A DNA stretch of 64,000 nucleotides, from NCBI GenBank assembly GCA_964617045.1, contig CAZTVZ010000004.1, positions 15,799 to 79,798 on the forward strand. The letters run 5' to 3'. This document shows, piece by piece, positions 4,673 to 63,648 of the stretch (position 1 is its first letter; each line of letters begins with the position of its first letter). This DNA is from an uncultured Gammaproteobacteria bacterium (GTDB lineage: Bacteria; Patescibacteriota; Microgenomatia; UBA8517). Position numbers and translations under genes: made by a program. Under the pieces are notes generated by a model, which was not told the DNA's origin, searched no databases, and saw only the letters and a program-made list of their open reading frames with translations.

Positions 4673-4836
4673 TTCTGCTCGGAATACTCGATCGTTAGTT
4701 TTCCGGCTTTAACGGTTGCGGCACAGCTTCGGATTTACACCGAATTCCTTGAAACACAATCGGTATGTTCATTATGCATTTAACATAATCGAAGTCAATA
4801 GGTTAATATTAATTAGATTAAAAGGGGGTGAGAATT

Positions 4837-20708: not shown

Positions 20709-20716
20709 GGGTTAAG

Positions 20717-20743
20717 TTGACTTTAAAACTTACTTCCTATTAT
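20717..20743 (+). promoter_or_regulatory. Sigma70-like promoter TTGACT-15-TATTAT for the downstream operon.
   Basis: TTGACT at 20717-20722 and TATTAT at 20738-20743, followed by the SD GGGAGGTGA at 20756-20764. Confidence 0.4.
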
Positions 20744-20770
20744 GCTTAAGTTCGACGGGAGGTGATTATT

Positions 20771-21349: not shown

Positions 21350-21849
21350 AGCGGGACGAGTATCAAAACGAGGCCTGGTTTGAGTTCTTGGAGGAAGACC
21401 TTCAAAGCTTGTTGATAACGAGCAGTATTTTGATGGAAAAAGCTTCTTCGTGGGATGAAAAACTAATTGACTATTCTTTCGTCGTTTTTCCGGCTGCAAA
21501 AGCATACGAAGGTTATTTGAAAAAAATATTTTACGAAAGAGGGTTTATTTCGAAGGATGATTATTATGGAAAAAGATTCAGGATTGGTAAAGCCCTTAAT
21601 CCAAGTCTTGATCCAAGATTCAAAAACGAAAGTGTATATAGAAAGATAGCCATTTCTCCGGAGAAGAAAGAACTTGCCGACAAACTTTGGGAAACATGGA
21701 AACTTTGTAGAAACATATTGTTTCATTGGTTTCCAGACGAAAAAAATACGGTGACCTTAAATGAAGCAGGGGAGAGAGTTGCCAGAATAATCGATACGAT
21801 GAGCAACTGCTTTGCAGGGTGTAATATAAAGTATGACCAAAGCAAATAA
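21346..21849 (+). CDS. Hypothetical protein, possible HEPN-like domain (RNxxxH).
   Basis: No signal peptide. Near the C-terminus, RNILFH matches the HEPN Rx4-6H / HepT RNxxxH motif. ATGA overlap with the upstream gene. Confidence 0.4.
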   Translation: MKRDEYQNEAWFEFLEEDLQSLLITSSILMEKASSWDEKLIDYSFVVFPAAKAYEGYLKKIFYERGFISKDDYYGKRFRIGKALNPSLDPRFKNESVYRKIAISPEKKELADKLWETWKLCRNILFHWFPDEKNTVTLNEAGERVARIIDTMSNCFAGCNIKYDQSK

Positions 21850-22486
21850 TCAGCTTAAAGTTAAAAACGTATTTATTTTCTTCTCTTATCTTCTTATTGT
21901 TTGGGGTCTTTACAGATATTTGATTCAACTTCCTGAAGAAATCGAAGAATTGGTTATAAAACCCCTAATTTGGTTGCTTCCTCTTTTAATACTTTTAAAA
22001 AGAGAAAAAGAAGCACTGTCCAGTTTGGGGTTGACTGTAAAAAAACTGTTTCCTTCTTTGTATTTTGTAATTGGACTTGGAGCGGTTTTTGCGATAGAGG
22101 CTCTTTTGATAAATTTTCTCAAATATGGAAGTTTGAACCTGGGTAGCAATATCGGAGATAAAACAATATTAATTGCAGTGTTTATATCTCTTGTTACGGC
22201 TTTTTCGGAAGAGATCGCTTTTAGAGGATACATCTTCGGAAGATTGCGAGATGCACTCAATAATGAATGGAAAGCAAGCTTGATCTCAACTGCAATGTGG
22301 ATCGTTATTCACATTCCTATCGTGATTTTTGTAAGAGATTGGACTGTTGGATCTGCTCTTGTTTATTTACTTATAACCGGATTATTTGGAATGGGAAGTA
22401 ATTTTGTGTATGCCCGTACGGGAAATGTATTTGCTTCAATCCTCCTACATGTGGTCTGGGAATGGCCACTAATTCTTTTTCGATAA
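21833..22486 (+). CDS. CPBP-family intramembrane metalloprotease (CAAX protease / Abi-like).
   Basis: Signature motifs EExxFRG (EEIAFRGYIFGRL) and a downstream HxxxN/W region (ILLHVVWE). 6-7 TM helices. Confidence 0.8.
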   Translation: MTKANNQLKVKNVFIFFSYLLIVWGLYRYLIQLPEEIEELVIKPLIWLLPLLILLKREKEALSSLGLTVKKLFPSLYFVIGLGAVFAIEALLINFLKYGSLNLGSNIGDKTILIAVFISLVTAFSEEIAFRGYIFGRLRDALNNEWKASLISTAMWIVIHIPIVIFVRDWTVGSALVYLLITGLFGMGSNFVYARTGNVFASILLHVVWEWPLILFR

Positions 22487-22541
22487 TGCGAGGCTAAGTT
22501 GACATATTTAGCACCAAAGAAGTACTATTTAAGCTACATAA

Positions 22542-23156
22542 ATGAAACGGTATATCGGAATTGGTGTTCTTGTTCTTCTGGCGGTAACAATCCTTGGAGT
22601 ATCCCTTCTTCGTTCGGCAAGAATTGACTGTGCATTCACGGGGGAAGTGTCAAAAGTGAATCCTAATGGAGATGAAAGCATTTCTATTCCGTACAACTTT
22701 CCATATCCAGGTATGTTGCCCGATAGCCCGCTTTGGCCTTTGAAGGCTTTTAGAGACAGAGCTTGGTTGACTGTTACCCTATCGGGAGATAAAAAAGCCG
22801 AAGTACTGTTATTTTTGGCGGATAAAAGAATGGCGGCTGCAAAAAGTCTATTTGAAAAAGGAAAAGCTGAAATTGGTTTTACCACCCTTACCAAAGCAGA
22901 AAAATATTTAGAGGAAGCAAGTAGGCAAGTAGGTGATTGTTGGAACGGCAAGGAGGACCAAAAAGGGATTTCATATAAAGTTGCACTTTCGGCACTTAAG
23001 CACAGAGAGTATATGAATTATTTGATAACGATTGCTCCGGAGGATGCAAGACCGGGGATAATCAGTTCCTTTAATTATTCCAACGATGTCTTCAATAGAT
23101 GTAGGGTTTCTCTTTTGGAACGAGGAAAGCAAGCTCCTGAAAACCCCTTTAATTAG
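22542..23156 (+). CDS. Hypothetical secreted or membrane-anchored protein (DUF5667-like).
   Basis: N-terminal TM/signal, then PGMLPDSPLWPLKAF, which resembles the LPGSPLYxLK motif of a Patescibacteria-enriched DUF. Confidence 0.4.
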   Translation: MKRYIGIGVLVLLAVTILGVSLLRSARIDCAFTGEVSKVNPNGDESISIPYNFPYPGMLPDSPLWPLKAFRDRAWLTVTLSGDKKAEVLLFLADKRMAAAKSLFEKGKAEIGFTTLTKAEKYLEEASRQVGDCWNGKEDQKGISYKVALSALKHREYMNYLITIAPEDARPGIISSFNYSNDVFNRCRVSLLERGKQAPENPFN

Positions 23157-23309
23157 GACTAAAAGATAATATTGTATAAAAAATATACCCTGGACTGTGA
23201 TTGTCTTATTGCAGTATTTTCCGTAATATTTCCGCGAGCAATTTAGAACTCACTATTTATAGCCTTAACTCATGCGTGTGTTGATATATTTGGACATAAA
23301 ACTTAATAG

Positions 23310-23338
23310 TTGACCATCTAACTGTAGTGTTAGATTAT
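23310..23338 (+). promoter_or_regulatory. Promoter TTGACC-17-GATTAT upstream of nrdR, overlapping a 5-6-5 inverted repeat that is a candidate NrdR box.
   Basis: TTGACC at 23310-23315, GATTAT at 23333-23338. The inverted repeat CTAAC-TGTAGT-GTTAG (23318-23334) has a right half TAGTGT like the NrdR-box consensus. A second near-palindrome GTTTCCATATGTGAAAC sits at 23365-23381. Confidence 0.35.
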
Positions 23339-23397
23339 GTTTCTCGAACCTACCCATAGCGCTTTTTGTTTCCATATGTGAAACAAGAAAGGTCAAA

Positions 23398-23841
23398 ATG
23401 AAATGTCCGTTTTGTGCACACCTAAATACGAAGGTTTTAGAATCCAGAATTGTGGAGGAAGGCGAAGCTTTGCGCAGGCGAAGAGAGTGTATCAAATGTG
23501 GCAGAAGGTTTACAACTTTTGAGAAAGTTAGAGACACGGTTTTGTGGGTAATCAAGAAATCGGGGAAAAGAGATCCTTTCGACAGAGAAAAGGTAAAAAG
23601 AGGAATTTTAAGAGCGATAGAAAAAAGACCGGTTTCTCTGGAATTGGTTGAAGATATTGTAAACGACATAGAGAGAGAATTATTGAGAAACGGAAAAGAA
23701 GAGATACCGAGCAAATTAATAGGAAATGCAGTCTTGAAAAGATTAAAAAGAGTGGATAAAGTAGCTTGGTTGCGATTTGCAAGTGTCTATCTTGAATTTG
23801 AGGATGTTGGAGATTTTGAGAAAGCGATAGATAAAGTATGA
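23398..23841 (+). CDS. nrdR: Transcriptional repressor NrdR.
   Basis: N-terminal zinc ribbon MKCPFC...C(I)KCG followed by an ATP-cone. Length 147 aa. It sits directly upstream of the RNR genes. Confidence 0.9.
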   Translation: MKCPFCAHLNTKVLESRIVEEGEALRRRRECIKCGRRFTTFEKVRDTVLWVIKKSGKRDPFDREKVKRGILRAIEKRPVSLELVEDIVNDIERELLRNGKEEIPSKLIGNAVLKRLKRVDKVAWLRFASVYLEFEDVGDFEKAIDKV

Positions 23842-26423
23842 CAAAGAAAAACAAAATAACATTAGATTCTTTTTCATTTCCTTCATATGAGGAAATTAAA
23901 AAAGATATTATCAATAAGATCGGAGATAAACCTGCAATGCCCACCGATCTTACCGAAGGCAATTGGACCGAACAGTCTCTGAAAGTTTTAAACGAGAGAT
24001 ATCTTCTGAGAGATAAAGAAGGAAACATAATAGAAACTCCTTCGCAAATGTGTTGGAGAGTCGCATGGGAAATTGCTTCAACTGGGGTAAGGTGGGGACA
24101 AACAAAAGAGGAAGTAATAAATACTGCACGAGAATACTACCGGCTTCTTTCCTCTCACGAGTTTTTGCCAAATTCTCCAACATTAATGAATGCCGGTGCC
24201 AATAATCATATGCAACTTTCCGGATGCTATGTGTTACCAGTAGAAGATTCTTTGGTGGGAATATTTGATGCAATTAAATACCAGGCACTTATTCATCAAA
24301 CTGGTGGTGGAACAGGTTTTTCTTTCTCAAGATTAAGGCCAAAAGGATCAGTCGTTGGTTCTAGTAAAGGGACTGCATCAGGCCCAGTTTCTTTTATGAG
24401 AATATTCGATTCTGCCACAAATGAAATAAAACAAGGAGGTAAAAGAAGAGGTGCCAATATGGGTATTTTGAGGGTCGACCACCCCGATGTTCTTGAATTT
24501 ATCCATTGCAAAGAAGATGGGGGAATCACCAACTTCAATATTTCCGTGGGGATAACGGATGCGTTTATGAAGGCATATGATCGTGATGAAGAATACGATC
24601 TTGTTAATCCCAAAACAAAAGAAAAGACAGGAAGTTTGTCTGCAAGAAAAGTATTCCAAGAAATTGCGGAAAGTGCTTGGAAATCGGGTGATCCTGGTTT
24701 GGTTTTCATCGACAGGTTAAATAGGGGAACGGCAAATCCGGTTCCAGTAATGGGCCCGGTTGAATCGACCAATCCTTGTGGCGAGCAACCTCTTTATCCT
24801 TGGGATTCCTGTAATTTGGGATCGATATTCTTAACCTATTTTGTAAAAGAAAAAGACGGGAAGAAATCTGTTAACTGGGAACGATTATCCGAAGTAACAA
24901 GACTTGCGGTTAGATTCTTGGATGGAGTTATCGAAGTAAATCCATACACCCTTCCACAAATCAGACAGACAACGTTCGGGATAAGAAGAATCGGATTGGG
25001 TGTTGGAGGTTGGTCCGACATGCTAATAGAGTTGGGTATTCCGTATGATTCCGAAGAGGCTTTGGAATTGGCTGCAAAAGTAATGAAATTTGTTAATAAG
25101 GAAGCGATAGCTGAATCTGAAGAATTGGCAAAAACAAGAGGGCCTTTTCCGATGTATCCGGTATCAATATATAAACATTTGAAACCAAGAAGAAATGCAA
25201 CTCTTACAACTATTGCTCCAACGGGAACAATTTCAATTATTGCAGGAGCCTCTTCGGGAATTGAGCCGATGTTCGCTATCGCATACCAACATATTGTTAA
25301 AGACAAACACTTGGATAGAAGAATGTCTTTCGTTAATCCTAAGTTTGAAGAGTTGGCAAAGAAAAGAGAAATATGGACAGATGAAATAAGAAAAATGGTT
25401 GAGGAAAAAGGAGTAGTGAGAGCAATTGAAGAAATCCCCCAAGATATCAGAAAATTATTTGGCACTGCTCATGAAATATCTCCATCATGGCATGTAAAAA
25501 TGCAGGCAGCATTCCAAAAATATACGGACAATGCAGTCAGTAAAACAATTAATTTGGATCATAATGCAACAATTAATGATGTTAAAAAAGCATATCTTTT
25601 GGCATGGGACACCGGATGCAAGGGGATAACCGTATTCAGGGACGGTTGTAAAGATATGCAGGTATTAAATTTGGGTTTGGGTGAAGTAAAGGATAAAACA
25701 AATATCGATAATACCGGGGTTCCACTCCGTGATAGGCCGGCTAAAGTATTCGGTGCTACTTATAAAATGAACACTCCCGTTGGAAGCGCATTTATCACTA
25801 TTAATCAGGACGAAAACGAAGATCCGTTGGAAGTATTTATCAATGTAGGTAAAGCAGGAAGTGATGTTGCGGCAATGGCGGAAGCTTTGGGAAGGACAAT
25901 ATCAACTGCACTAAGATTCCGAGGGTCTTTGGGGCCGAAAGAAAAAGCCAAAGAAATTGCCGGTCAATTATCCGGAATAGGTGGAAGAAGATCTGTGGGG
26001 TTTGGACCCAACAAAGTAAGATCTTTACCGGATGCTATCAGCTCGGCATTATCAATGCACTACGGTTTTAAAATTAACGGAAACGGCCACGCTGAAGCGC
26101 CACTAAAAGCGGCCGGTGCTGTTATGGAGGCGGTGGGTTCTGCCCAGGTAGAACAAACCCCAACGGGTTATCCCGGCCCCACAATGGCTTCGACCGCCTC
26201 TAATGGCGCTTCAAACGGCAACGGACATTATACGAATGGACATTCGGCTCAAACTCTCGAAAGCATTCAAGAAATTGTTTTACCAACGGAAGATGAAGTA
26301 AAAGATTATTCTTTCGAAACAATGGAAAAACCAGGTGATATCTGCCCCGCATGTGGTGCTTCCGCTCTTGTTTATGAGGAGGGATGTTCCAAATGTCACG
26401 CCTGTGGCCATTCGGAGTGCTAA
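23838..26423 (+). CDS. nrdJ: Ribonucleotide reductase, class II (adenosylcobalamin-dependent), with a C-terminal zinc ribbon.
   Basis: RNR catalytic fold motifs LPNSPTLMNAG, SGCYV, and TNPCGEQPLYPWDSCNLGS (thiyl-radical Cys loop). No ATP cone. A low-complexity Ser/Asn/Gly linker precedes the CPACG...CSKCHACG tail. Confidence 0.9.
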   Translation: MTKKNKITLDSFSFPSYEEIKKDIINKIGDKPAMPTDLTEGNWTEQSLKVLNERYLLRDKEGNIIETPSQMCWRVAWEIASTGVRWGQTKEEVINTAREYYRLLSSHEFLPNSPTLMNAGANNHMQLSGCYVLPVEDSLVGIFDAIKYQALIHQTGGGTGFSFSRLRPKGSVVGSSKGTASGPVSFMRIFDSATNEIKQGGKRRGANMGILRVDHPDVLEFIHCKEDGGITNFNISVGITDAFMKAYDRDEEYDLVNPKTKEKTGSLSARKVFQEIAESAWKSGDPGLVFIDRLNRGTANPVPVMGPVESTNPCGEQPLYPWDSCNLGSIFLTYFVKEKDGKKSVNWERLSEVTRLAVRFLDGVIEVNPYTLPQIRQTTFGIRRIGLGVGGWSDMLIELGIPYDSEEALELAAKVMKFVNKEAIAESEELAKTRGPFPMYPVSIYKHLKPRRNATLTTIAPTGTISIIAGASSGIEPMFAIAYQHIVKDKHLDRRMSFVNPKFEELAKKREIWTDEIRKMVEEKGVVRAIEEIPQDIRKLFGTAHEISPSWHVKMQAAFQKYTDNAVSKTINLDHNATINDVKKAYLLAWDTGCKGITVFRDGCKDMQVLNLGLGEVKDKTNIDNTGVPLRDRPAKVFGATYKMNTPVGSAFITINQDENEDPLEVFINVGKAGSDVAAMAEALGRTISTALRFRGSLGPKEKAKEIAGQLSGIGGRRSVGFGPNKVRSLPDAISSALSMHYGFKINGNGHAEAPLKAAGAVMEAVGSAQVEQTPTGYPGPTMASTASNGASNGNGHYTNGHSAQTLESIQEIVLPTEDEVKDYSFETMEKPGDICPACGASALVYEEGCSKCHACGHSEC

Positions 26424-26426
26424 TAG

Positions 26427-28586
26427 ATGGAAGAAAAAATACTCTTAAATAAAAAAGTAGTAAAAGCCGGAGGTGCGGAAGAAAATTTTAACCTCGAAAA
26501 AATAAAAAACAGTATTTGGTATGCTGCACAAAACGTTGGAGGAAAAGATAAGAAACTCTCAGAAGGATTATCCAAAGAAGTTCAAAAGTATTTGTTGGAA
26601 CATTTAAACGGAGAAGAAAAAATTAAATCGAGTTTGATTGGAGAGGCTGTCGAAAAAGTATTAATCGAAAAAGGACATGCAAAAACAGCCAAAGCATATA
26701 TCTTATTCAGGGAAAACAAAAAACACTTGAGACAGGACAAAGAAACGCTTGGGGTTAACGACGATATAGGTCTTTCGTATAACACTTTGTATATTCTGAA
26801 ATCCAGATATTTAAAAAAGGATGAAAAAGGAGATGTTATTGAATCACCCCGTGAATTAATCGAGAGAGTTGCCAATTGTTTGTCTTCTGTGGAGAAAAAC
26901 GATCAGGAAAAGAAAAAATGGTTCGAAAGATTTATGAATATCATGATTTCTTTTGAGTTTTTGCCGGGAACCCGAACATTGGCTAACGCGGGACTTCGTA
27001 ATCCTCAACTGGCAAACTGTTTTGTTTTCGACCTGGAAGATGATATAGACGGAATTTTTGAAACACTTCACAAATCAACTTTGATAAAAAAACACGGAGG
27101 GGGATGCGGATATAACTTTACCAGGATTAGACCCGAAAGCGATCTTGTTAGTGGAATTCCAGGTTTGGCAGCGGGACCTGTGAGAATGATAGAAATGTTC
27201 GATTTAATGACATCACTTTTTAAACAACAGGGGAAATATGAAAGTGGGAATATGGCAATTTTAAACGCAAATCACCCTGATATTTTTAATTTTATTTCGG
27301 CCAAACAAAATGAAAATTATTTGACAAAAACCAATCTGTCCGTAGGAATAACCGACGAATTTATGAATGCTGCCGTAAAAGATAAAACATGGCAACTAAA
27401 AAGTCCGAGAACCGGGGAAATTGTCAGCGAAGTTGAGGCAAATTCAATACTTGAGTTGATGGCACAGATGGCTTGGGCAACAGGTGATCCGGGTATAATC
27501 AACCTTTCTGCAATCAATAGGGGAACCAAACTGGCAAACCCGTTATACAAAAAGAAGGGTCCAATAATGGCTACCAATGTTTGTGGTGAAATACCTTTAT
27601 ACCCTTACGAATCGTGCAATCTTGGATATCTAAACCTTACGAAATTTGTTATTGGAAAAAAGTTTGATTACAAAAGATTTAAAGAAGTAATGAAGATTGC
27701 TGTTAGGTTAATGGACAACGTAATTGACGCTTCTTGGTTCCCGGTAAGAGAAGTGGAAAAGGCGGTTCGTGATCACAGAAGACTGGGTATTGGGGTTGTT
27801 GGTTGGGCGGAAACCCTTATTATGCTTGGCATACCTTACAACAGTAGCGAAGCTTACAAATTCGCGGAAGAATTAACAAAAACGATGTATCAGACTGCTT
27901 TCAATACATCTTGCGAGCTAGCAAAAGAAAAAGGACCTTTTCCTCTTGTTCAAGATTCAATATGGGCAAATGCAAAAAGGAAACCAAGGAACGTTGCTTT
28001 AATAACTTTTCCTCCATCAAGCGGAAACGCGGTGCTTTGTGAGACCTCATATGGTATTGAACCCTTATTCGCAATTGCCTACGAACAAAACGTTTTGGGA
28101 GGAGAAAGGTTTACCAATATTAATCCTCTTTTTGTCCGAGAGTTGAGAGAAAGAGGTTTGTATTCAGAGAAGATAATCGAGAAAGTAATAAAAAATCACG
28201 GATCTGTTCAGGGAATTAAAGAAATCCCACAGGATATGCAAAAAATATACAAAGTTGCACACGATATTAACTGGAGAGATCACATCAAGATGCAAGCTGC
28301 ATTTCAAAAATGGACAGATAACGCAATTACAAAAACAATAAATATGCCTTCATCAACAACGCCGGGAGATATTAAAGAAGCTTACATTTTGGCATGGAAG
28401 CTGGGATGCAAAGGCTTAACCGTTTACAGGGATAAGACTAAACAAAACCAAGTATTTGAATTTGGAAAAAGTTCGTCTTCTGTTGGAAAGATCAGTAAAA
28501 CTTGTCCTACTTGTTCCACCAAGCTTTTTAAAGACGGTAAATGTCTGAAGTGCAAGAACTGTGGTTTTTCCACTTGTGAGTTATAA
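26427..28586 (+). CDS. nrdJ: Ribonucleotide reductase, class II paralog, with an N-terminal ATP-cone and a C-terminal zinc ribbon.
   Basis: N-terminal ATP-cone (VVKAGGAEENFNLEKIKNSI), catalytic motifs FLPGTRTLANAG, ANCFV, ATNVCGEIPLYPYESCNLG, and a C-terminal CPTCS...CLKCKNCG. Confidence 0.85.
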   Translation: MEEKILLNKKVVKAGGAEENFNLEKIKNSIWYAAQNVGGKDKKLSEGLSKEVQKYLLEHLNGEEKIKSSLIGEAVEKVLIEKGHAKTAKAYILFRENKKHLRQDKETLGVNDDIGLSYNTLYILKSRYLKKDEKGDVIESPRELIERVANCLSSVEKNDQEKKKWFERFMNIMISFEFLPGTRTLANAGLRNPQLANCFVFDLEDDIDGIFETLHKSTLIKKHGGGCGYNFTRIRPESDLVSGIPGLAAGPVRMIEMFDLMTSLFKQQGKYESGNMAILNANHPDIFNFISAKQNENYLTKTNLSVGITDEFMNAAVKDKTWQLKSPRTGEIVSEVEANSILELMAQMAWATGDPGIINLSAINRGTKLANPLYKKKGPIMATNVCGEIPLYPYESCNLGYLNLTKFVIGKKFDYKRFKEVMKIAVRLMDNVIDASWFPVREVEKAVRDHRRLGIGVVGWAETLIMLGIPYNSSEAYKFAEELTKTMYQTAFNTSCELAKEKGPFPLVQDSIWANAKRKPRNVALITFPPSSGNAVLCETSYGIEPLFAIAYEQNVLGGERFTNINPLFVRELRERGLYSEKIIEKVIKNHGSVQGIKEIPQDMQKIYKVAHDINWRDHIKMQAAFQKWTDNAITKTINMPSSTTPGDIKEAYILAWKLGCKGLTVYRDKTKQNQVFEFGKSSSSVGKISKTCPTCSTKLFKDGKCLKCKNCGFSTCEL

Positions 28587-28594
28587 TCTTCAAA

Positions 28595-29131
28595 ATGTCT
28601 ATCTACACAAAAAAGGGTGACGGAGGAGAAACAGGCTTATATTCCAGAACCAAAGACAAGGTTGTCCGTATTTTCAAAGATTCACCAATAATCGAGGCGA
28701 TAGGATCTGTCGATGAGGCAAATTCATTTTTGGGTATATGTGCGGACTGTCCCAACAACAATCTTCACAAGAAGATCGTGATTATCCAAAGGGCTTTGTT
28801 TACCGTTGGAGGAATTCTTGCAGGTGCAAAATTATCTATTTCAAATAAACAAATCGAGTATTTGGAAAACGAAATAGACTCCATGGATAAAGAACTTCAA
28901 AAATTATCAGGGTTTATTCTACCTGGAGGTGGATTTACGGGAAGCCATCTTTTTATGGCAAGAACGTTAATAAGGAAAGCTGAACGAAAATTGGTTCGTT
29001 TATCTAAAGAAGAAAAGGTTCCTGCAAGTGTTCTCGTATATGTAAACAGGCTCTCGGATTATGTTTATACCCTCGCAAGATACAGCAATTTGAAAGAAGG
29101 AATTAAAGAGGAGTCTTGGAAGCGTAAATAA
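28595..29131 (+). CDS. pduO: ATP:cob(I)alamin adenosyltransferase, PduO-type.
   Basis: N-terminal TKKGDGGETGL (the PduO T(R/K)xGDxGxT motif) and EANSxxG. Length 178 aa. Confidence 0.8.
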   Translation: MSIYTKKGDGGETGLYSRTKDKVVRIFKDSPIIEAIGSVDEANSFLGICADCPNNNLHKKIVIIQRALFTVGGILAGAKLSISNKQIEYLENEIDSMDKELQKLSGFILPGGGFTGSHLFMARTLIRKAERKLVRLSKEEKVPASVLVYVNRLSDYVYTLARYSNLKEGIKEESWKRK

Positions 29132-29148
29132 TAATGTTAAAATGATTT

Positions 29149-29490
29149 ATGACCATGACTCCGGAACGGGGGAGTTTTCCTGTACAGGAAAGACCGGAAG
29201 AGTTTCCCGAAATTCCGTTAGAAATTGAAAATAAGACTGCCTTAACTCCTACACCTGTCCAATTTAAAGCACAGGTTAAAGACGATAGAGGTAAACCGCT
29301 AATTTCAACCTCCGAAAGGGAAGAAAATAAAATTGTAATTCCCAAACCTAAGGAGCAATTGGAAATTGGAGCAAAGGGTTCAGCCGGCGATGCTTTAACC
29401 TGGTTCAGTCAATTTTGGTTGAGGGCAATTAAAAAAGCGGTATTGGTTGGGAAACAAATATTTTTAAGGAGGGAAAATGCCAATAATTGA
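29149..29490 (+). CDS. Hypothetical protein.
   Basis: 113-aa ORF whose end overlaps the start of the downstream ATPase. No recognisable domain. Confidence 0.35.
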   Translation: MTMTPERGSFPVQERPEEFPEIPLEIENKTALTPTPVQFKAQVKDDRGKPLISTSEREENKIVIPKPKEQLEIGAKGSAGDALTWFSQFWLRAIKKAVLVGKQIFLRRENANN

Positions 29491-31804
29491 TATTAACGCA
29501 ATCGTTTTAGCACTTCTTTTGTTGGGACTTCTTGTTTTGGGATTGTTTGTAATTGGATATGTAGCGTTCATCTTTATTAGGCACAGGAATCGTGAGGAGA
29601 AATCTTTGGAATCAGTACTCATGCAAATAGCAGTTCCAAGAGGAAATGAAACAAAAATTGATGCAATGGAACAAATGTTCTCGTCTCTTTCTTCCTTGAA
29701 AAAAGGAGGCTTTTGGCAAAAGTTTTCATTCCAACCTACGATATCTTTCGAAATTGTGGCCAGAAAGGAAGATATTCGTTTCTATATCTGGACACCGGTA
29801 AAATATAAAGATCTTTTAGAAAAACAAATACACGGAGCTTTTCCTGATGCGGAAGTTTTGGAGGTATCCGAATACAACATATTTAACGAATCGGGCAAAG
29901 TTGCTTATAAATCGCTGCAACTTTCCAAAGAAAATTACTACCCGATCAAGACTTTTAAGGATTTGGCCACCGATCCTTTGGCTGCGATTACCTCTTCGAT
30001 GGCAAAGATGGGGGACGGTGAGGCAGCAGCAGTCCAAATAGTTGTTTCTCCCGCCGATATCCCTTGGCAAAAAGAAGGGGGTAGTTATATCTCCGATACA
30101 AAAAAACAGGAATCTAATCCGGAAAAAGCCAGTTTTTCTACTTCGGGAAAAACTCTTGAATCAATTGAGAGCAAGACTTCCAAACCCGGTTTTGAAGTAT
30201 CGATAAGAATCGTTGCGGTTGCTCCTTCCGAAGAAATTGCAAAAATGCACCTGACCAACATTGAAGCAGGTTTTGAACAATTTAGTTCGGATACCAACAA
30301 ATTCCGATCAAGAAAAATTCGCAACAAAGGAGCTTTTATTGAAGATTTTCTTTATCGGTATCAACCAATGTTTCATTTATTTGGGAATCGCTCTTCGATC
30401 TTAAATTCTGAGGAATTGGCAACACTATTCCATTTTCCGAACAAACAAATTACAACACCCCACATTTATTGGATATATTCAAAAACCGCTCCTGCACCAT
30501 CCGATATTCCAAATGAAGGAATGTTTTTGGGAATTAGTGCCTACAGAGGGGTAAAAAGATCGGTATACATTTCCGACGAAGACAGAAGAAGACACACATA
30601 CATAATCGGAAAAACAGGAACAGGAAAGACAGAACTTTTAAAAGATATGATTTTGCAGGACATTAAAGCGGGTCGTGGAATATGTTTTATGGATCCTCAT
30701 GGAGACGCGATCGAAGATATTTTAAAACAGATTCCTCCGGAGAGAGCGGAAGACGTGATTTATTTTAATCCCGGTGACACCGAAAGGCCGATGGGATTAA
30801 ATCTTCTTGAAGCAAGAACGGAAGATGAAAAACATTTTGTTGCAACATCCGTTATTAATATGATGTACAAGCTTTTCGATCCTTATAAGACAGGTATCGT
30901 GGGTCCTCGATTCGAGCATGCCGTAAGAAACGCAATGCTAACCGTAATGGCAGAACCGGGTAATACTTTCGTTGAGGTCATGAGAGCATTAACCGATGCC
31001 AATTTTGTTCAAGAACTTCTTCCCAAAGTAACCGACCCGATTATCAGAAGGTATTGGACAGATCAAATAGCTCAAACCGCCGATTTTCATAAGTCGGAAG
31101 TTTTGGACTACATTGTTTCCAAATTTGGAAGATTTGTTACCAATAAAATGATTAGAAACATAATTGGACAATCTCAATCTTCATTCTCTTTCAGAAATAT
31201 TATGGATGAAGGGAAAATTCTTTTAATTAATTTGGCTAAAGGTGAAATAGGGGAGGAAAACTCTAATTTCTTGGGACTTGTTTTGGTCCCCAGAATTTTA
31301 ATGGCTGCTATGAGTAGACAAGATGTTCCTGAAGACCAGAGGCGTGACTTCTTCCTTTATGTTGACGAGTTCCAAAATTTTGCCACCCCCGATTTTGCGC
31401 AGATTCTTTCCGAAGCAAGAAAATACAAATTAAACCTTTGTGTTGCCAACCAGTTTATCGGACAGGTTGAGGAAGAGGTGAAAAATGCGGTATTTGGAAA
31501 TGTGGGAACAATTATTGCCTTTAGGGTTGGTGTTACGGACGCTTCTTACCTTGCTCACGAATTTACTCCAACTTTCGGTGAAGATGACCTTTTGAACATA
31601 GAAAGATACCACGCTTATATTAAAACGATAGTTCACAATGAACCCGTGCCCCCGTTCTCAATGGATTTGACCAAAGATATTGCTGCCCAAAAAGCAGCAG
31701 AAAATCATAGAGTAGCAGAAATCGTAAAAGAAATGAGCAGGCTAAAATTTGGAAGAGACGAGCGTCTAGTTGAAGCAGAAATGACCAGAAGGGCTAAGCT
31801 TTAG
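29477..31804 (+). CDS. T4SS-type P-loop ATPase (FtsK/HerA superfamily, VirB4/VirD4-TraD-like) with an N-terminal TM helix and a family-specific N-domain.
   Basis: N-terminal TM helix. Walker A HTYIIGKTGTGKTELL then DPHGD (the T4CP DPxGD-like motif), Walker B FFLYVDEFQNF, and the C-terminal motifs ARKYKLNLCVANQFIGQ. It is a paralog of the ATPase at 61450..63648. Confidence 0.7.
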   Translation: MPIIDINAIVLALLLLGLLVLGLFVIGYVAFIFIRHRNREEKSLESVLMQIAVPRGNETKIDAMEQMFSSLSSLKKGGFWQKFSFQPTISFEIVARKEDIRFYIWTPVKYKDLLEKQIHGAFPDAEVLEVSEYNIFNESGKVAYKSLQLSKENYYPIKTFKDLATDPLAAITSSMAKMGDGEAAAVQIVVSPADIPWQKEGGSYISDTKKQESNPEKASFSTSGKTLESIESKTSKPGFEVSIRIVAVAPSEEIAKMHLTNIEAGFEQFSSDTNKFRSRKIRNKGAFIEDFLYRYQPMFHLFGNRSSILNSEELATLFHFPNKQITTPHIYWIYSKTAPAPSDIPNEGMFLGISAYRGVKRSVYISDEDRRRHTYIIGKTGTGKTELLKDMILQDIKAGRGICFMDPHGDAIEDILKQIPPERAEDVIYFNPGDTERPMGLNLLEARTEDEKHFVATSVINMMYKLFDPYKTGIVGPRFEHAVRNAMLTVMAEPGNTFVEVMRALTDANFVQELLPKVTDPIIRRYWTDQIAQTADFHKSEVLDYIVSKFGRFVTNKMIRNIIGQSQSSFSFRNIMDEGKILLINLAKGEIGEENSNFLGLVLVPRILMAAMSRQDVPEDQRRDFFLYVDEFQNFATPDFAQILSEARKYKLNLCVANQFIGQVEEEVKNAVFGNVGTIIAFRVGVTDASYLAHEFTPTFGEDDLLNIERYHAYIKTIVHNEPVPPFSMDLTKDIAAQKAAENHRVAEIVKEMSRLKFGRDERLVEAEMTRRAKL

Positions 31805-31839
31805 AAAATTGGTTTGTGGTGATATAATTTAGCCTCAAC

Positions 31840-31910
31840 GGGTCCTTCGTTCAATGGCAGGACACGACTCTTATAAAGTCGACACAGGGGTTCGATTCCC
31901 TTAGGACCCA
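31840..31910 (+). tRNA. tRNA-Ile with anticodon UAU.
   Basis: Manual fold: a 7-bp acceptor stem GGGTCCT/AGGACCC, a D-arm GTTC/GGAC, an anticodon stem CGACT/AGTCG with loop CTTATAA (U33, anticodon TAT, A37), a T-arm AGGGG-TTCGATT-CCCTT, and discriminator A. CCA is not encoded. Confidence 0.7.
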
Positions 31911-31923
31911 CACTTTTAGGTTT

Positions 31924-32790
31924 TCAGAGTTCAATAAGAAGTTGTTTTTTGCCGGGTTCTTTAACCTGTGCAAGCTCCAAATATCTTTCGGTTGTGGAAA
32001 GTCTTTTGTGTCCGGAAACCTGAGAAAGGAGAACGATGTCCACTCCGGCTTTAATGTTTTCAACAATGAAAGTAGTCCTCAAATCATTTACGGAATAGTT
32101 TGGCATTTCTGCTCTTTGCATGTATCTGTCGATTGCTGCCCTAATATTTCTTACAGCCAATGGTTTACCGTTTTTTGATACAAAAAGGTATTCGGAGGCA
32201 ATTTTATTGGGCCTTGTTGCTGAATAACTGGAAATTGCTTCTTTTGCGGCTCTGTTTAAGGGAATGGTTCTTTCAGGCTGCGTTGCGTAAGCCTCTATCT
32301 TCATGTGGTCTCCTTTTAGGTTTGATAGTTTAAGGCTTGCTACTTCGGAAATTCTAATTCCTGTTTGGAGAATTATTTCAACAATTGCAGCAATTCTAAT
32401 GTCGCTCCTGACAACGTCGCGCAAAGCTCTGTATTCGAGAGGAGAGAGAAACTTGGGAAGTGAACTTTCGATCTTGGGATGTGCAACGGAAAGTGATGGA
32501 TCCGAAGCTAAATGGTTTTCGGATATTAGCCATCTGAAGAATGTTTTTACAGCATTTAATTTTCTGGAAACTGTTTTTGGAGTATATTTTTCGGCCAAAA
32601 GTTGATCTCTAAAAGATTCAAGATCGGACGCAATTATTTGCTCCGGGAGGCCTTTGTTTTTACGCGTCAAATATTGAACAAGCTGTTCAAGATCGGCTCT
32701 GTAGGCAAGTATTGTTGCCGGAGAACGACCTTTCTCTTTAAGGCTCTCGATAAACTTCGGAAGCAGGTTCTTAAGTGTTTCTTGTGTCAT
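31924..32790 (-). CDS. xerC: Tyrosine site-specific recombinase, XerC/XerD family.
   Basis: The 288-aa length, the N-terminal SAM-like domain (ILAYRADLEQLVQYL), and the C-terminal catalytic R...HxxR...Y (GHKRLSTTERYLEL) are Xer-like. Confidence 0.8.
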   Translation of the reverse strand: MTQETLKNLLPKFIESLKEKGRSPATILAYRADLEQLVQYLTRKNKGLPEQIIASDLESFRDQLLAEKYTPKTVSRKLNAVKTFFRWLISENHLASDPSLSVAHPKIESSLPKFLSPLEYRALRDVVRSDIRIAAIVEIILQTGIRISEVASLKLSNLKGDHMKIEAYATQPERTIPLNRAAKEAISSYSATRPNKIASEYLFVSKNGKPLAVRNIRAAIDRYMQRAEMPNYSVNDLRTTFIVENIKAGVDIVLLSQVSGHKRLSTTERYLELAQVKEPGKKQLLIEL

Positions 32791-32850
32791 AATATGAGGG
32801 TCAGACTTACAATGATACCAGGATTATAAGATAAGTCAACATTATAAGGT

Positions 32851-33240
32851 ATGAAGGAGGCTAAAAAACACAAATTATCCGATGTGTTCGGCAAATTCAC
32901 AAAATACATCGTTATTTTGTTTGCCGTTTTATTCTTAATTTCTTTAATCAGGAGCCTGGTTAAGATTACCGGTTCAAAAAAACAAATCGATGAAGCAAGG
33001 GGAAGGGTTGAAAAATTACAATCGGAAAACGAGTCTCTGAAAAACAAACTGGCTCTTTCACAGAGTGAAGCGTTTATTGAACAGCAGTTGAGGGACAAAT
33101 TGGGATTGGCAAAAGAGGGGGAAATGGTGGTGGTTCTGCCTGAACCGAGCATATTAAAACAATATTCACCTAAAATTGTATACGAAGAAGAGATTCTCCC
33201 CGATCCTACCTGGAAAATGTGGTTTAGGTTCTTTTATTGA
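32851..33240 (+). CDS. ftsB: Septum formation initiator FtsB/DivIC-family protein.
   Basis: An N-terminal TM helix followed by a coiled coil (RVEKLQSENESLKNKL), and LRDKLGLAKEGEMVVVLPEP, the conserved FtsB C-terminal motif. Confidence 0.75.
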   Translation: MKEAKKHKLSDVFGKFTKYIVILFAVLFLISLIRSLVKITGSKKQIDEARGRVEKLQSENESLKNKLALSQSEAFIEQQLRDKLGLAKEGEMVVVLPEPSILKQYSPKIVYEEEILPDPTWKMWFRFFY

Positions 33241-33365
33241 GTTTCTGAGCTCAAACTGGTAACATATACCTCTGGAGATACTACATGCGGGGTAGTGTAC
33301 GGCTGCACGCAAGGCTCATAATCTTGCAGACTAGGTCCAACTCCTAGCCCCGCAACACGATACCT

Positions 33366-33437
33366 GCCAACGTAGCTCAGCGGCAGAGCGGTCGTTTCAT
33401 AAGCGACATGTCACAGGTTCGAATCCTGTCGTTGGCA
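33366..33437 (+). tRNA. tRNA-Met (anticodon CAU; elongator-type by stem features).
   Basis: Manual fold: acceptor stem GCCAACG/CGTTGGC, D-arm GCTC/GAGC, anticodon stem GTCGT/GCGAC with loop TTCATAA, and T-loop TTCGAAT. It lacks the initiator features (no C1xA72, no 3 GC pairs at the base of the anticodon stem). CCA is not encoded. Confidence 0.75.
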
Positions 33438-33485
33438 CACCTTTTACGCTTCAATACTAGCCTCAAAAGTGATACAATCCAGGGT

Positions 33486-34487
33486 ATGTCAGCTAAACGA
33501 GTATTATCAGGAATTCGTGCTTCGGGCCGCCTACATTTGGGAAACTATTTAGGTGCGGTCAAAGGAATGCTGGCTTTACAAGACGATCCTGCCTACGAAA
33601 CGTTCTATATGGTTGCCGATTTGCACACTTTAACAACCCCATATGAGAAAGAAAAACTGGAAGAGCAGGTTAAAGAAGTAATTCTGGATTATTTGGCTGC
33701 AGGTTTGGATCCTGAAAAATCGGTTATTTTTATTCAATCTCAAACCGGTGAACACAGAAAACTTGCTTATCTTCTGGCAACAGAAGTTTCGGTGGCAAGA
33801 ATGTTACACCTACCAACTTACAAAGATAAGCTAAAAGAAAATCCTGACGATGCGAGTCTTTCCCTTTTGTATTATCCGGTTCTAATGGCGGCGGACATTC
33901 TGGCTTACAAAGCAAATCTTGTTCCGGTTGGAGTAGACCAAGAGCCACATTTGGAAATATCCAGGCAAATTGCCAGGAAAATGAATTCCAAATACGGTAC
34001 AAATTTTCCAGAACCAATAAGATTCGAGACAGAAGGCGGATATGTCCCGTCTCTAACGGGAGAGGGAAAAATGAGCAAAAGTATCGAAGGAAGTGCGATT
34101 TATTTAACTGACAGTTTGGATGAGATTAAAAGTAAAATTGCCAAGATTCCGACAGATTCGGGAAGTGGAGAGACCGTTCCTAAAGAAGGCGGAGTTGCCT
34201 CTCTTTTTACAATTACGGAACTGGTAATGGGAAAAAAGGAAAGAGAAAATTTGGAACAGAAATATCTGTCTGAAGGAATAAGATATGGTGAGCACAAAGA
34301 AAAACTGTCACAAGCGATTTTTGAAATGCTAAAACCGATTCAAGAAAAAAGAGAGTATTTCGAGAATAATCCCGAAAAGGTAAGGGAAATAATTAAAGCA
34401 GGGGATAATAAGGCCACCGAGGTGTCCCACGGTATTGTTGAAGAGGTATCTTCAAAAATGGGTCTTTGTTACGACTTTTTAAAATAA
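33486..34487 (+). CDS. trpS: Tryptophanyl-tRNA synthetase.
   Basis: SGIRASGRLHLGNYLGA (HIGH-type motif) and KMSKS (GEGKMSKS). The ORF track starts upstream and overlaps the tRNA. The ATG at 33486 gives a protein of the canonical size. Confidence 0.9.
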   Translation: MSAKRVLSGIRASGRLHLGNYLGAVKGMLALQDDPAYETFYMVADLHTLTTPYEKEKLEEQVKEVILDYLAAGLDPEKSVIFIQSQTGEHRKLAYLLATEVSVARMLHLPTYKDKLKENPDDASLSLLYYPVLMAADILAYKANLVPVGVDQEPHLEISRQIARKMNSKYGTNFPEPIRFETEGGYVPSLTGEGKMSKSIEGSAIYLTDSLDEIKSKIAKIPTDSGSGETVPKEGGVASLFTITELVMGKKERENLEQKYLSEGIRYGEHKEKLSQAIFEMLKPIQEKREYFENNPEKVREIIKAGDNKATEVSHGIVEEVSSKMGLCYDFLK

Positions 34488-55050: not shown

Positions 55051-55185
55051 CTTTCTCAGGGGTGCGAGGTTAACTTCCCTTCAGGGTAACAACTTCATAA
55101 TTTGAACCTTAACAATCGAGATGTGACTGGGAATGTATAAAGACGTGCATAGACAATCGTCAAATGTCTATCACCGTCACTTTTT

Positions 55186-56644
<1,459 letters not shown>

Positions 56645-61449: not shown

Positions 61450-63648
61450 CTAGTCTCCGTTGCGGTGGTAATGTGACTGATGGCCCATAGGTTGGGGTTT
61501 GTTGGTGAATTTATTCAGAATGTTTTGATGAAATCTTCTTGCCCACCTTTGTCTGGAAGAGGCAATTACCTTCTCCCTGTGTTGGTTGGAAGATATGGGG
61601 AGGGGAAGAGTATAGGCAAGGAAAGGTCGGGTAGTAAGGCCGTTAATAGTCATCTTGATTGCAACCTGATAATTGGACAAATTGACCATGTCGTTCTGCG
61701 TGAAAACCTCAGCAAACTCCTTGTAGAGGATTTCGGCATCCGATGCTCCTACCGCAAAAGTGATAATAGTTCCGGCATTTCCGAGTATGGCTTTTTGAAC
61801 CTCTTCCGGGATTTGGGCCATATATTGATTGGCGAGTGTGATATTGAGTCTATACTTTCTGGCCTCCGACATTATTTTAATAAACGAGCCTGTAGCGAAA
61901 TTCTGAAATTCGTCGACGTAAAGGTAGAAATCCCTTCTTAATTTTTCATCCATATCCACCCTGTGCATGGCTGAGAGTTGGAGTTTTGTAATAAGCATGG
62001 CTCCCAATAGTGCTGCGTTGTCTTCACCCAATCTTCCCTGAGATAAGTTACAAAGAACAATTTTCCCTTCGTTCATTGCATCGTCTAATTTTACCGATGA
62101 CTTTGGAGAACCAATTACAGATCTGATAAGAGGGGAAGTAACAAATTGTCCAACTTTATTAAGAATTGGTGAAATAGCCTCTTTCTGAAGTTGGGGAGTC
62201 ATCTTCTCGAATTCGTCCATCCAAAATGATTTAAGGGTTGGATCTTTTACGTTTTCAACCACTTTTTTACGATATGCTTGATTGGTAAGAATCATCGGAA
62301 CATCTTTTAGGGTTGCGTTTGGCACTTCCGCCAAAGTCAGAAGAGTAGTTCTAAGAATATATTCGAGTCTTGGACCCCAGGAAAAACCGAATATTTTATT
62401 GAATATAGAAACGATTCCCGAAACCACGAGTTCCGCCTCTTCTTTGTTGGTCACCTCCAAAGGATTAATTGTGATGGGGAAATCCTTGTCGGACGGATTG
62501 AAGTAAATCACATCATTAATTCTGTTTTTAGGCACATAATTTAATAGTATTTCGCAGGCGTCTCCGTGTGGATCGATATAGCAAATACCTCTTCCTTTTT
62601 TCATATCATCAATTGCCATGTTTACCAAGAGCGTGGATTTTCCAGTTCCGGTTTTTCCGATTGTCCAGAGATGTCTCCTGCGATCAATATCTTTTATTCC
62701 GAATATTGTGTCCCTATTTTTGAATTGGGTTTTAGCAAAAAAGTTGATTGTCTTCTTTTCTTCATCGGTTGCATTCAAGGCTGTTGGAAGAGTTTCTGGT
62801 GGTTCGGAAAGGACACTTTGACCCCAGGCAATTGTCGGGGTTTTAATCTTATCGGAAGGAAGATGCCATATAGTAGCCAGCTCCAGGATATTCATTATTT
62901 GATTATCCGACACTTCTCTGGAAAGAAGCTTTTCGAGAGATTTATCTTTCATAAGTATGGATTTTTTCTTGTTGGAAAAACTGTTTCCGTCGGCTCGAGT
63001 GAATACACCGAATGACGAGATTATTTCTTTTCTTGTTTTATCGGAATTTCCGGCCACTCTTAGAGAAACCTTAAAACCCGGATAACTAATTTTCTCTTTT
63101 ATTATTGCCTGATCGTTTCTGGGCGAATATGTGCCGTCTTCTTTCTTTTCTCCTTTTTCGGCATATGCTGCACCGTTTGCCTGCCAAGATGATCCTGCTC
63201 CTTCAAGGGCAATTTGAATAATTGCAAATTCGTCCGGACTTGCCTTGGCGAGTACAGAGAGTATTGAAGACAAAGGGTCAATCTCCGTAAATTTCGAATA
63301 ATCGGCAATTGGATAATACGAACCTTTTTTTAGCACTAACGTATTTACCCCCAGATTTTGGCCGGTTAAAGGATCGTTTATTTTTTCAATTATTGCCAAA
63401 GGATAATTGCTCTGAATCTGAGTCGTAATAAAAGGTATTAAATCCGTATCACAAGTTATTTGAAATTGGATCTGTTGATTTGAAAGACAAATCTCGAGAG
63501 CTAATGGTTGAACTTTTGTTCCTGTAAGTTTTTGGAAAAAACTCACTCCGTTTATTTGGGTCAAAGCAGAAAGGAATGTTTTCGCTGCTTCAGGAGTTAT
63601 CTCCGTATTCCTAGGCAGCTTAATAAGAAGGGTGGTCAGGTCTTGCAT
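61450..63648 (-). CDS. T4SS-type P-loop ATPase (FtsK/HerA superfamily, VirB4/VirD4-TraD-like), a paralog of the 29477..31804 protein; no N-terminal TM helix.
   Basis: Walker A HLWTIGKTGTGKSTLL then DPHGD, Walker B FYLYVDEFQNF, and ARKYRLNITLANQYMAQ. The N-domain aligns with the paralog (ELATIWHLPSDKIKTPTIAW ~ ELATLFHFPNKQITTPHIYW; YPGFKVSLRV ~ KPGFEVSIRI). Confidence 0.7.
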   Translation of the reverse strand: MQDLTTLLIKLPRNTEITPEAAKTFLSALTQINGVSFFQKLTGTKVQPLALEICLSNQQIQFQITCDTDLIPFITTQIQSNYPLAIIEKINDPLTGQNLGVNTLVLKKGSYYPIADYSKFTEIDPLSSILSVLAKASPDEFAIIQIALEGAGSSWQANGAAYAEKGEKKEDGTYSPRNDQAIIKEKISYPGFKVSLRVAGNSDKTRKEIISSFGVFTRADGNSFSNKKKSILMKDKSLEKLLSREVSDNQIMNILELATIWHLPSDKIKTPTIAWGQSVLSEPPETLPTALNATDEEKKTINFFAKTQFKNRDTIFGIKDIDRRRHLWTIGKTGTGKSTLLVNMAIDDMKKGRGICYIDPHGDACEILLNYVPKNRINDVIYFNPSDKDFPITINPLEVTNKEEAELVVSGIVSIFNKIFGFSWGPRLEYILRTTLLTLAEVPNATLKDVPMILTNQAYRKKVVENVKDPTLKSFWMDEFEKMTPQLQKEAISPILNKVGQFVTSPLIRSVIGSPKSSVKLDDAMNEGKIVLCNLSQGRLGEDNAALLGAMLITKLQLSAMHRVDMDEKLRRDFYLYVDEFQNFATGSFIKIMSEARKYRLNITLANQYMAQIPEEVQKAILGNAGTIITFAVGASDAEILYKEFAEVFTQNDMVNLSNYQVAIKMTINGLTTRPFLAYTLPLPISSNQHREKVIASSRQRWARRFHQNILNKFTNKPQPMGHQSHYHRNGD

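Follow-up and report, generated by a model that had tools for sequence, protein, structure and literature searches.

When the gene for a membrane-anchored ATPase stops just short of a tRNA gene and the gene for a tyrosine recombinase ends just beyond it, is the arrangement the edge of an integrated mobile element or an inherited part of the chromosome? We asked this of a 64,000-nucleotide stretch (the window) of contig CAZTVZ010000004.1, positions 15,799 to 79,798, from GenBank assembly GCA_964617045.1, which is titled an uncultured Gammaproteobacteria bacterium and is placed by GTDB in the Patescibacteriota (Microgenomatia, UBA8517). The locus consists of a small upstream open reading frame (ORF) of 113 aa (29149..29490, + strand, from the ORF list); ATPase1, a 775-aa membrane-anchored member of the DUF8128 family with a motor resembling type IV coupling proteins (T4CPs) (29477..31804, +, from the ORF list, Pfam and the annotation of orthologues); tRNA-Ile(UAU) (31840..31911, +, by ARAGORN and Rfam); a convergent Xer-type tyrosine recombinase of 288 aa (31924..32790, -, Pfam); and, divergent from the recombinase, a DivIC/FtsB-type septum protein (32851..33240, +, Pfam DivIC, 1e-13). 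A second, soluble ATPase of 732 aa, ATPase2 (61450..63648, -, by BLASTP against ATPase1 and Pfam), adjoins the rRNA operon. The locus very probably belongs to the core chromosome, with ATPase1 the anchored member of an ancient pair of paralogous motor ATPases for which we propose a role at the membrane.

Conserved order and host-like composition of the ATPase1 locus

The original prediction had read the succession of ATPase, tRNA and integrase as the footprint of an integrated conjugative or mobile element, or its remnant, and had offered a chromosomal Xer recombinase beside a domesticated ATPase of type IV secretion system (T4SS) type as the alternative. The ORFs, tRNA and recombinase that it listed were all present where it had placed them (ORF list, ARAGORN, Rfam), including the 113-aa ORF, which overlaps ATPase1 by 14 nt. 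The tRNA does adjoin both genes, at distances of 35 nt from the ATPase1 stop codon and 12 nt to the end of the recombinase gene rather than 36 and 14 nt. Core genes ftsB and trpS were rightly named as neighbours, but the DivIC gene is the + strand ORF at 32851..33240 and not the overlapping - strand ORF (32787..33152).

Reading the locus as a live or remnant element would make tRNA-Ile its target, the recombinase its integrase and ATPase1 its coupling protein, and the likeness is real as far as it goes: the trio superficially resembles the ends of integrative and conjugative elements, the ATPase family has plasmid and phage relatives, and the recombinase also matches the large phage integrase family phrog_1. 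The tests for mobility went the other way. The 3' 25-mer of the tRNA, searched for as an attL/attR repeat with up to three mismatches, had a single match in the 64-kb window, and a direct-repeat search of positions 20000-34000 returned short families at chance level only. GC content was 0.38-0.41 over 29-33 kb, like the flanks, and ATPase1 (GC 0.392, GC at third codon positions (GC3) 0.348) had the lowest codon-usage divergence of 42 window genes (Kullback-Leibler divergence (KL) 0.054), with no sign of foreign origin and a codon usage more typical of the host than that of any other gene tested. GC skew was monotonic across the window, and no relaxase, VirB4, VirB6, VirB8 or pilin was matched by Pfam or NCBIfam among its scanned genes, nor was any other T4SS gene matched in the 64 kb.

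Gene order in relatives agreed with this. Neighbours were counted at another 80 loci, drawn from GTDB species representatives and banded by identity to ATPase1, with tRNA-Ile(UAU) accepted up to 2.5 kb downstream, a convergent Xer gene up to 6 kb away and the small ORF immediately upstream. At 70% identity or more, every locus carried the tRNA (9/9) and Xer (9/9) and all but one the small ORF (8/9); at 60-70% identity the respective counts were 28/34, 13/29 and 16/34, and over all loci 44/70 (23 of them within 300 nt), 27/58 and 33/75. The most persistent neighbour of ATPase1 is tRNA-Ile(UAU), often 20-80 nt from its stop codon; the linkage was retained down to 45-65% identity and was seen in Dojkabacteria and in contigs labelled Saccharibacteria (L065, L070-L072). 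Because this linkage reaches distant contigs of the candidate phyla radiation (CPR), the tRNA is an inherited neighbour and not an integration site. In relatives the order upstream runs penicillin-binding protein (PBP), HEPN, Rce1, DUF5667, NrdR, ribonucleotide reductase (RNR), cobalamin adenosyltransferase (CobAT), small ORF, ATPase1 and tRNA-Ile(UAU), followed by one variable gene, Xer (-), DivIC (+), tRNA-Met, TrpS, FtsH, a 5'-3' exonuclease and a glycosyltransferase. The full order was seen in relatives whose ATPase1 is 75-77% identical, where the contigs measure 685 and 765 kb, and ATPase1 orthologues 75-82% identical kept fixed synteny across relatives. The same order was present in all close relatives examined and was retained in part at class-level divergence, within the Microgenomatia and outside them, and core genes ordered as in relatives lie on both flanks of the trio.

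The recombinase also behaves as a chromosomal gene. It is convergent with ATPase1, and in the relatives in which ATPase1 is 75-77% and FtsH 70-73% identical it is itself 75% identical, the same rate as its core neighbours, with DivIC divergent from it at the same position. A SAM-like N-domain (Phage_int_SAM_1, 59.8 bits) and a catalytic domain (Phage_integrase, 95.5 bits), at residues 12-92 and 114-274 of 288, make up its architecture, with no arm-binding domain. NCBIfam models scored 154.9 bits for XerC (cut-off 335), 151.4 for XerD (330) and 146 for XerA (220), ahead of XerS (77 bits) and integron integrases (49 bits), and the closest solved relatives are XerD (1a0p) and XerA (5hxy). By model scores and context, we classify it as Xer-type: it shares with XerC, XerD and XerA its size, its two domains, its best HMM (hidden Markov model) and PDB matches and a chromosomal site beside a division gene, but it falls below every Xer equivalog cut-off. 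The original prediction of a 288-aa XerC/D-like enzyme stood, except for its HxxR box, which reads NDLR; the histidine that had been noticed belongs to the later GH...Y box. Of the catalytic residues, both arginines (in TGIRISE and NDLR), the histidine of the GH box and the tyrosine of TERY are in place, and the HxLR box was NDLR in all 34 sequences compared (the window and 33 orthologues, L001-L073). We take its Asn to occupy the His-II position, as the spacing is that of E. coli XerD (GH box at 23 residues, tyrosine at 9). To judge from these alignments, Asn at the catalytic His-II position marks this CPR clade throughout, a further difference from XerC, XerD and XerA.

The ATPase1 locus has been inherited vertically rather than left behind by a mobile element, and the chance that an element, live or remnant, nevertheless underlies it is very small. 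Synteny, composition and the Xer type of the recombinase favour instead the alternative that had been offered, a chromosomal Xer with a domesticated T4SS-like ATPase. The window is ordinary core chromosome of a Woesebacteria-type genome (Microgenomatia, Patescibacteria/CPR) with no integrated element, and as a mobile element the locus has no significance. Homologues of both ATPases came from assemblies of Woesebacteria, Microgenomates and 'Patescibacteria group'. Many GTDB representatives with a CPR-type locus (L008, L009, L013, L015 and others) are titled 'uncultured Gammaproteobacteria/Pseudomonadales bacterium', and single ones Bathyarchaeia, Limisphaerales or Methylomirabilota; all of these are evidently mislabelled or contaminated bins.

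Domain plan and relationships of the two ATPases

ATPase1 combines one transmembrane helix, a domain folded like the N-terminal domain of VirB4 and a TrwB/TraD-like RecA motor that contains a helical insertion. The helix (residues ~6-35, 29492..29581, +) was recognised in the sequence, the AlphaFold2 model and the orthologues; it is hydrophobic and is followed by a basic stretch, RHRNREEK, from which the positive-inside rule would place the remainder of the protein in the cytoplasm. The DUF8128 N-domain covers residues 40-345 (29594..30511, +), and the RecA-like motor (30524..31666, +), delimited from invariant columns, Foldseek and the model, carries the inserted all-helical domain at residues ~449-563, Walker A at G378-K384 (nt 30608-30631, +) and Walker B (YVDEFQN) at residues 628-634 (nt 31358-31378, +). 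The model had a pLDDT of 84.8, with the helices at 6-35 and 449-563 visible, and Walker A, Walker B and other motor residues were invariant across 63 sequences of both paralogues.

Sequence models and fold pointed to different relatives for the two halves of the protein. Pfam matched TrwB_AAD_bind at 40.9 bits (cut-off 20.5) and TraG-D_C at 25 bits (cut-off 22). The T4CP models of NCBIfam all stayed below threshold, the best being SXT_TraD (54 bits, cut-off 366) and the other equivalogs (TraD, TrbC, CD1115-type VirD4) reaching 15-40 bits against cut-offs of 250-800; the VirB4 model TIGR00929 (VirB4_CagE) gave 19 bits against 643. DUF8128 (PF26449) was taken from precomputed domain annotation, where it is N-terminal on an identical protein (P0001) and on all 240 orthologues listed; orthologues, where named, are called 'type IV secretion system DNA-binding domain-containing protein' by PGAP. 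In Foldseek, the best full-length match of the whole ATPase1 model was TrwK/VirB4 of R388 (E 2e-17), and TrwB (1e9s/1gki) was matched over the motor only, with a target TM-score of 0.62-0.67 and E ~1e-12, followed by HerA and Cagbeta. The 14 best Foldseek matches of the model were all TrwK (E 3e-8 to 3e-5), with unrelated folds after them at E ~1e-3, and since TrwK takes all of these ranks the predicted fold of the DUF8128 N-domain is that of the VirB4 N-terminal domain.

In having a RecA motor with an all-helical insertion, Walker A and B motifs, the TrwB_AAD_bind and TraG-D_C domains and an N-terminal anchor, ATPase1 resembles TrwB of R388, TraD, VirD4 and Cagbeta. It differs from them in the ~300-residue VirB4-like domain between anchor and motor and in the number of transmembrane helices, which is usually two in those proteins, one in ATPase1 and none in ATPase2. 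Unlike conjugative T4CPs, the ATPases of the window have no relaxase or T4SS neighbours there and are only 16-17% identical to TrwB. VirB4/TrwK proteins likewise place a VirB4-type N-domain before a motor domain, but identity to ATPase1 is ~10%, the VirB4 model scores as low as given above, and ATPase1 lacks VirB6 and VirB8 neighbours.

ATPase2 is collinear with ATPase1, at 35% identity over 728 aa (BLASTP, E 6e-140), and both contain the motifs GKTGTGK[TS], DPHGDA, YVDEFQNFAT and ANQ. Its Pfam matches were TraG-D_C at 28.3 bits (cut-off 22) and DUF87 at 25.3 bits, with TrwB_AAD_bind at only 16.9 bits; its orthologues, 70-85% identical, all carry PF26449. The N-terminal transmembrane helix was found in 119 of 120 ATPase1 orthologues and in none of 120 ATPase2 orthologues. 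Over 7600 homologues were recovered with ATPase1 and over 6100 with ATPase2, and within Woesebacteria identity stood at 70-85%. In a neighbour-joining tree of CPR sequences the ATPase1 and ATPase2 groups parted at the root, and the anchored clade held sequences from Microgenomatia, Dojkabacteria, WWE3, Doudnabacteria and contigs labelled Saccharibacteria. On the 685-kb contig of a relative the two genes lie ~40 kb apart, as against ~30 kb in the window. From these comparisons the two ATPases represent two ancient orthologous groups, one anchored and one soluble, that have been kept across CPR classes. What the original prediction had said of them was borne out: paralogy with matching Walker, DPHGD and ANQ motifs and collinear N-domains, a transmembrane helix in the 775-aa copy only, and a family duplicated within 64 kb in two contexts. 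The split at the root of the tree adds that the duplication was neither local nor recent.

Other arrangements of the family were also seen. On contigs of Berkelbacteria and contigs labelled Saccharibacteria (L078 7920-16548; L083 7944-15281), two DUF8128 ATPases of ~850 and ~1000 aa are clustered, and between them lie genes for a conserved 175-aa protein and a 346-aa DNA-binding protein with Sigma70_r4 and HARE-HTH domains. At L075 (1128-6163), two family copies stand in tandem after a tRNA-guanine transglycosylase gene.

By their domains, both ATPases belong to the orphan VirD4-like coupling-protein family of Patescibacteria (DUF8128 with TrwB_AAD_bind or TraG-D_C), which we place within the FtsK-HerA superfamily, on its VirB4/VirD4 branch; the window genes are further members of a family that is known but uncharacterised. 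A survey of 2918 Patescibacteria genomes (Quinonero-Coronel et al. 2025, PMC12102498) counted 5713 VirD4-like T4CP homologues, only 148 of them near virB4, and considered exaptation possible. Domains, names, a frequency of about two copies per genome, a chromosomal location away from virB4 and the lack of a relaxase are common to those proteins and the window genes, and we found nothing that separates the two; the published copy number fits the two paralogues of the window. A literature search for 'DUF8128' returned no paper, and we did not find the split into anchored and soluble groups, the VirB4-like N-domain, the small partner gene or the linkage to tRNA-Ile(UAU), the Asn-variant Xer and DivIC in the searchable literature, which is no proof of priority.

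Full-length relatives of ATPase1, N-domain included, were found at 21-29% identity and 75-90% query coverage in SPO1-like Bacillus phages (SPO1 gp27.4 and a SP8 'VirD4 component-like protein') and on Bacillus, haloarchaeal, actinomycete (Embleya/Streptomyces) and Sulfolobus plasmids; the match to PHROG family phrog_5156 had an E-value of 6e-100. Among them is a 'DUF87 domain-containing protein' of 913 aa from B. subtilis plasmid CP120602.1, aligned over residues 87-764 at 24% identity (E 4e-47); its gene lies upstream of TcpC/TcpD/TcpE-like conjugation genes. These relatives have the same two-domain plan and can be aligned over both N-domain and motor, but they reside on mobile replicons, whereas in the CPR the genes are duplicated, lie on the chromosome and keep their synteny. 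Their existence agrees with the published view that this Patescibacteria machinery derives from monoderm conjugation systems. We had considered a homologue on a 65-kb B. subtilis plasmid as the coupling protein of pLS20 and dropped the idea: the pLS20 T4CP (gene 48) has 786 aa and two transmembrane helices, and the homologue is the 913-aa DUF87 protein of a different plasmid. With the N-domain alone as query, 2492 clusters (50% identity) were recovered at E<=1e-3; in the 150 best matches listed the domain was N-terminal, and the longer, apparently full-length proteins measured ~780-1100 aa.

The small upstream gene and other features of the window

The 113-aa ORF that overlaps the start of ATPase1 aligned with the upstream ORFs of three relatives (L001, L002 and L006), with conserved motifs FKAQVKDDxGxPLIxT and LTWxxxFWLRxIKK. 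The ATG of ATPase1 itself is preceded at 6 nt by AAGGAGG. An HMM built from the aligned small ORFs placed the family immediately 5' of ATPase1 on the same strand in 33/75 loci, and members, where detected, were always directly upstream on the ATPase1 strand. With a profile search the family grew to at least 530 members, 102-125 aa in length, none of which has a Pfam domain or a name other than 'hypothetical', and the ORF of the window had no match in Pfam, NCBIfam, PADLOC or PHROG. Its C-terminal helix is basic and amphipathic and, judged by eye, it contains no strong transmembrane segment. Where the HMM fails, an upstream ORF is usually present all the same, whose body is of low complexity and whose C-terminal helix is amphipathic, basic and rich in Trp. 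On this evidence the ORF is a real gene of a conserved, previously unannotated family and the predicted partner gene of ATPase1. An identity with VirB3 was considered and is not supported: VirB3 has transmembrane segments, whereas no strongly hydrophobic stretch was seen by eye in the small protein, and no family matched it.

Directly 5' of this pair, with gaps of 8-17 nt, a run of genes at 23398-29131 (+) encodes NrdR, a PduO-type cobalamin adenosyltransferase and two RNR large subunits, of which one carries a TSCPD domain and the other an ATP-cone. A HEPN/RNase LS-like (RnlA toxin-type) gene at 21346-21849 (+) lies between the PBP genes and an Rce1-like protease gene, a position kept in relatives L001, L006 and L008-L011. 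Elsewhere, the window encodes glycolysis and pentose-phosphate enzymes, two PBPs, FtsH, Fpg, RecF, an ATP-dependent DNA ligase, thioredoxin reductase, six tRNAs and 16S rRNA (55180-56642, Rfam/ARAGORN scan). An AdoCbl-II riboswitch at 4689-4762 (-) precedes a 308-aa ORF (3746-4672, -) without a Pfam match.

Downstream of tRNA-Ile(UAU), two genes of tRNA-Met(CAU) type follow at 33286-33438. The mechanical start of the trpS ORF (33408-34487, +) overlaps the second of these (tRNA-Met, 33366-33438); because the TrpS model aligns only from residue 27-29 onward, translation probably begins at the Met at 33486. A promoter-like TTTAGA-17-TGnTATAAT at 31800-31828, overlapping the end of ATPase1, is a consensus match only, and a promoter and terminator scan gave counts equal to those of shuffled sequence. 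On the 3' side of ATPase2, two genes for signal-peptide proteins of 880 aa (56950-59592, -) and 411 aa (59884-61119, -) have in common a Cys-containing C-terminal domain of ~200 aa (CPxCGP...), and neither protein had a match in Pfam, NCBIfam or PADLOC. Their GC3 of 0.42 and 0.48, compared with ~0.34 for the window, made them the only deviating genes in the composition and codon-usage test; relative L005 has ORFs of 301 and 870 aa at the same place.

Possible roles of the anchored and soluble ATPases

By analogy with related motors, these proteins would most likely function as translocation ATPases at the membrane, exapted from the conjugation machinery of monoderms. With TrwB, VirB4 and HerA as established examples, ATPase1 may form a ring-shaped oligomer that sits against the cytoplasmic side of the membrane, with its VirB4-like N-domain serving as a docking platform for membrane partners, of which the small co-translated protein with its basic amphipathic C-terminal helix would be the first candidate. 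ATP hydrolysis could then move a polymer, DNA or unfolded protein, toward a membrane channel, and ATPase2 might act as a second motor or receptor tier, much as VirB4 and VirD4 cooperate in conjugation machines. We postulate that the family most likely originated in plasmid and phage machinery of monoderms or archaea, was acquired early in the evolution of the CPR and later became fixed in the chromosome.

Several observations weigh against this account. The motor looks T4CP-like by sequence (54 bits to SXT_TraD) and the N-domain VirB4-like by fold (19 bits to the VirB4 model), which leaves the subfamily ambiguous, and the oligomeric state, partner binding and substrate of ATPase1 are all argued from analogy. 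The small protein has no recognisable transmembrane segment or domain, its interaction with ATPase1 is suggested by overlap and co-conservation, and distant CPR lineages have an upstream ORF that is not detectably homologous to its family. In Southlakia epibionticum, moreover, the T4CP homologue was reported to be dispensable for epibiotic growth (PMC12102498), so its function there is not the essential T4SS function.

That result bears equally on the most serious competitor, in which the two proteins are genuine T4CPs that serve a chromosomal T4SS or pilus of MPF-FATA (mating-pair formation) type encoded elsewhere and recruit substrates to it, perhaps other than DNA. T4SSs are widespread in Patescibacteria (PMC12102498, PMC12857230) and T4CP genes often lie away from virB4; TrwB_AAD_bind and TraG-D_C exceed their Pfam cut-offs, TrwB is the best structural match of the motor domain, and the plasmid relative sits beside Tcp-like conjugation genes. 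We regard this as possible but unlikely, because in S. epibionticum the T4SS genes are essential whereas the homologue is not, and that essential T4SS was described without recognisable coupling and relaxase proteins (PMC10633639). Across Patescibacteria, only 148 of the 5713 published homologues lie near virB4; every NCBIfam T4CP equivalog is far below its cut-off, a VirB4-like N-domain replaces the usual two transmembrane helices directly before the motor, and the need for two conserved paralogues is left unexplained.

A further candidate is an FtsK-like DNA translocase that acts at the division site with Xer and DivIC in segregation or dimer resolution. ATPase1 is indeed a membrane-anchored protein of the FtsK-HerA superfamily, and ATPase1, Xer and DivIC stay together in 27/58 loci, in some of which other neighbours have changed, including contigs of Levy-, Davies-, Collier-, Shapiro- and Dojkabacteria and contigs labelled Saccharibacteria. 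This linkage is, however, explained by slow decay of ancestral synteny, since RNR and CobAT upstream are retained about equally often; the genes are convergent or divergent rather than co-transcribed, with variable genes inserted between them, and a winged-helix gamma domain was not seen. In Saccharibacterium TM7x, ftsK is annotated as a gene of its own (PMC10768705). A search of six-frame translations of 1.29 Mb of CPR loci with an FtsK Walker A/B pattern gave no match, but it has no power as the loci all represent the same region. All told, we consider this role improbable. An anti-phage defence ATPase, HerA- or mad8-like and part of a defence island, has still less in its favour: PADLOC matched mad8 (67 and 58 bits) and, weakly, HerA, and the HEPN/RNase LS-like gene lies 8 kb upstream, but the matches are confined to the generic motor domain and no gene for a partner nuclease, a Sir2 protein or a methylase adjoins ATPase1. 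Defence genes are also patchy and mobile, unlike a gene with the conservation and fixed synteny of ATPase1, and on distribution and context we rejected the defence reading as highly improbable.

The preferred interpretation thus remains a pair of chromosomal motor ATPases, one of them anchored in the membrane. It may be extended, speculatively and with the odds clearly against it, to a T4SS-independent membrane machine present throughout the Patescibacteria, in which the DUF8128 ATPases and the small protein, derived from a monoderm plasmid or phage motor that joins a VirB4-type docking domain to a motor of coupling-protein type, and with the anchored copy still linked to tRNA-Ile(UAU), the Asn-variant Xer and DivIC, would handle DNA at the membrane or septum, either in segregation and dimer resolution, replacing FtsK or working beside it, or in DNA exchange or uptake. 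Whatever their substrate, the DUF8128 proteins are among the largest uncharacterised, lineage-typical families of the CPR, with at least 2492 clusters at 50% identity and about two genes per genome, and their ATPase genes evolve as slowly as FtsH. CPR bacteria rely on their hosts and on machines of the cell envelope, and two conserved motors that derive from conjugation machinery but have become detached from T4SSs are good targets for Saccharibacteria genetics, for which the VirB4-like N-domain, the split between anchored and soluble groups and the small partner gene provide handles.

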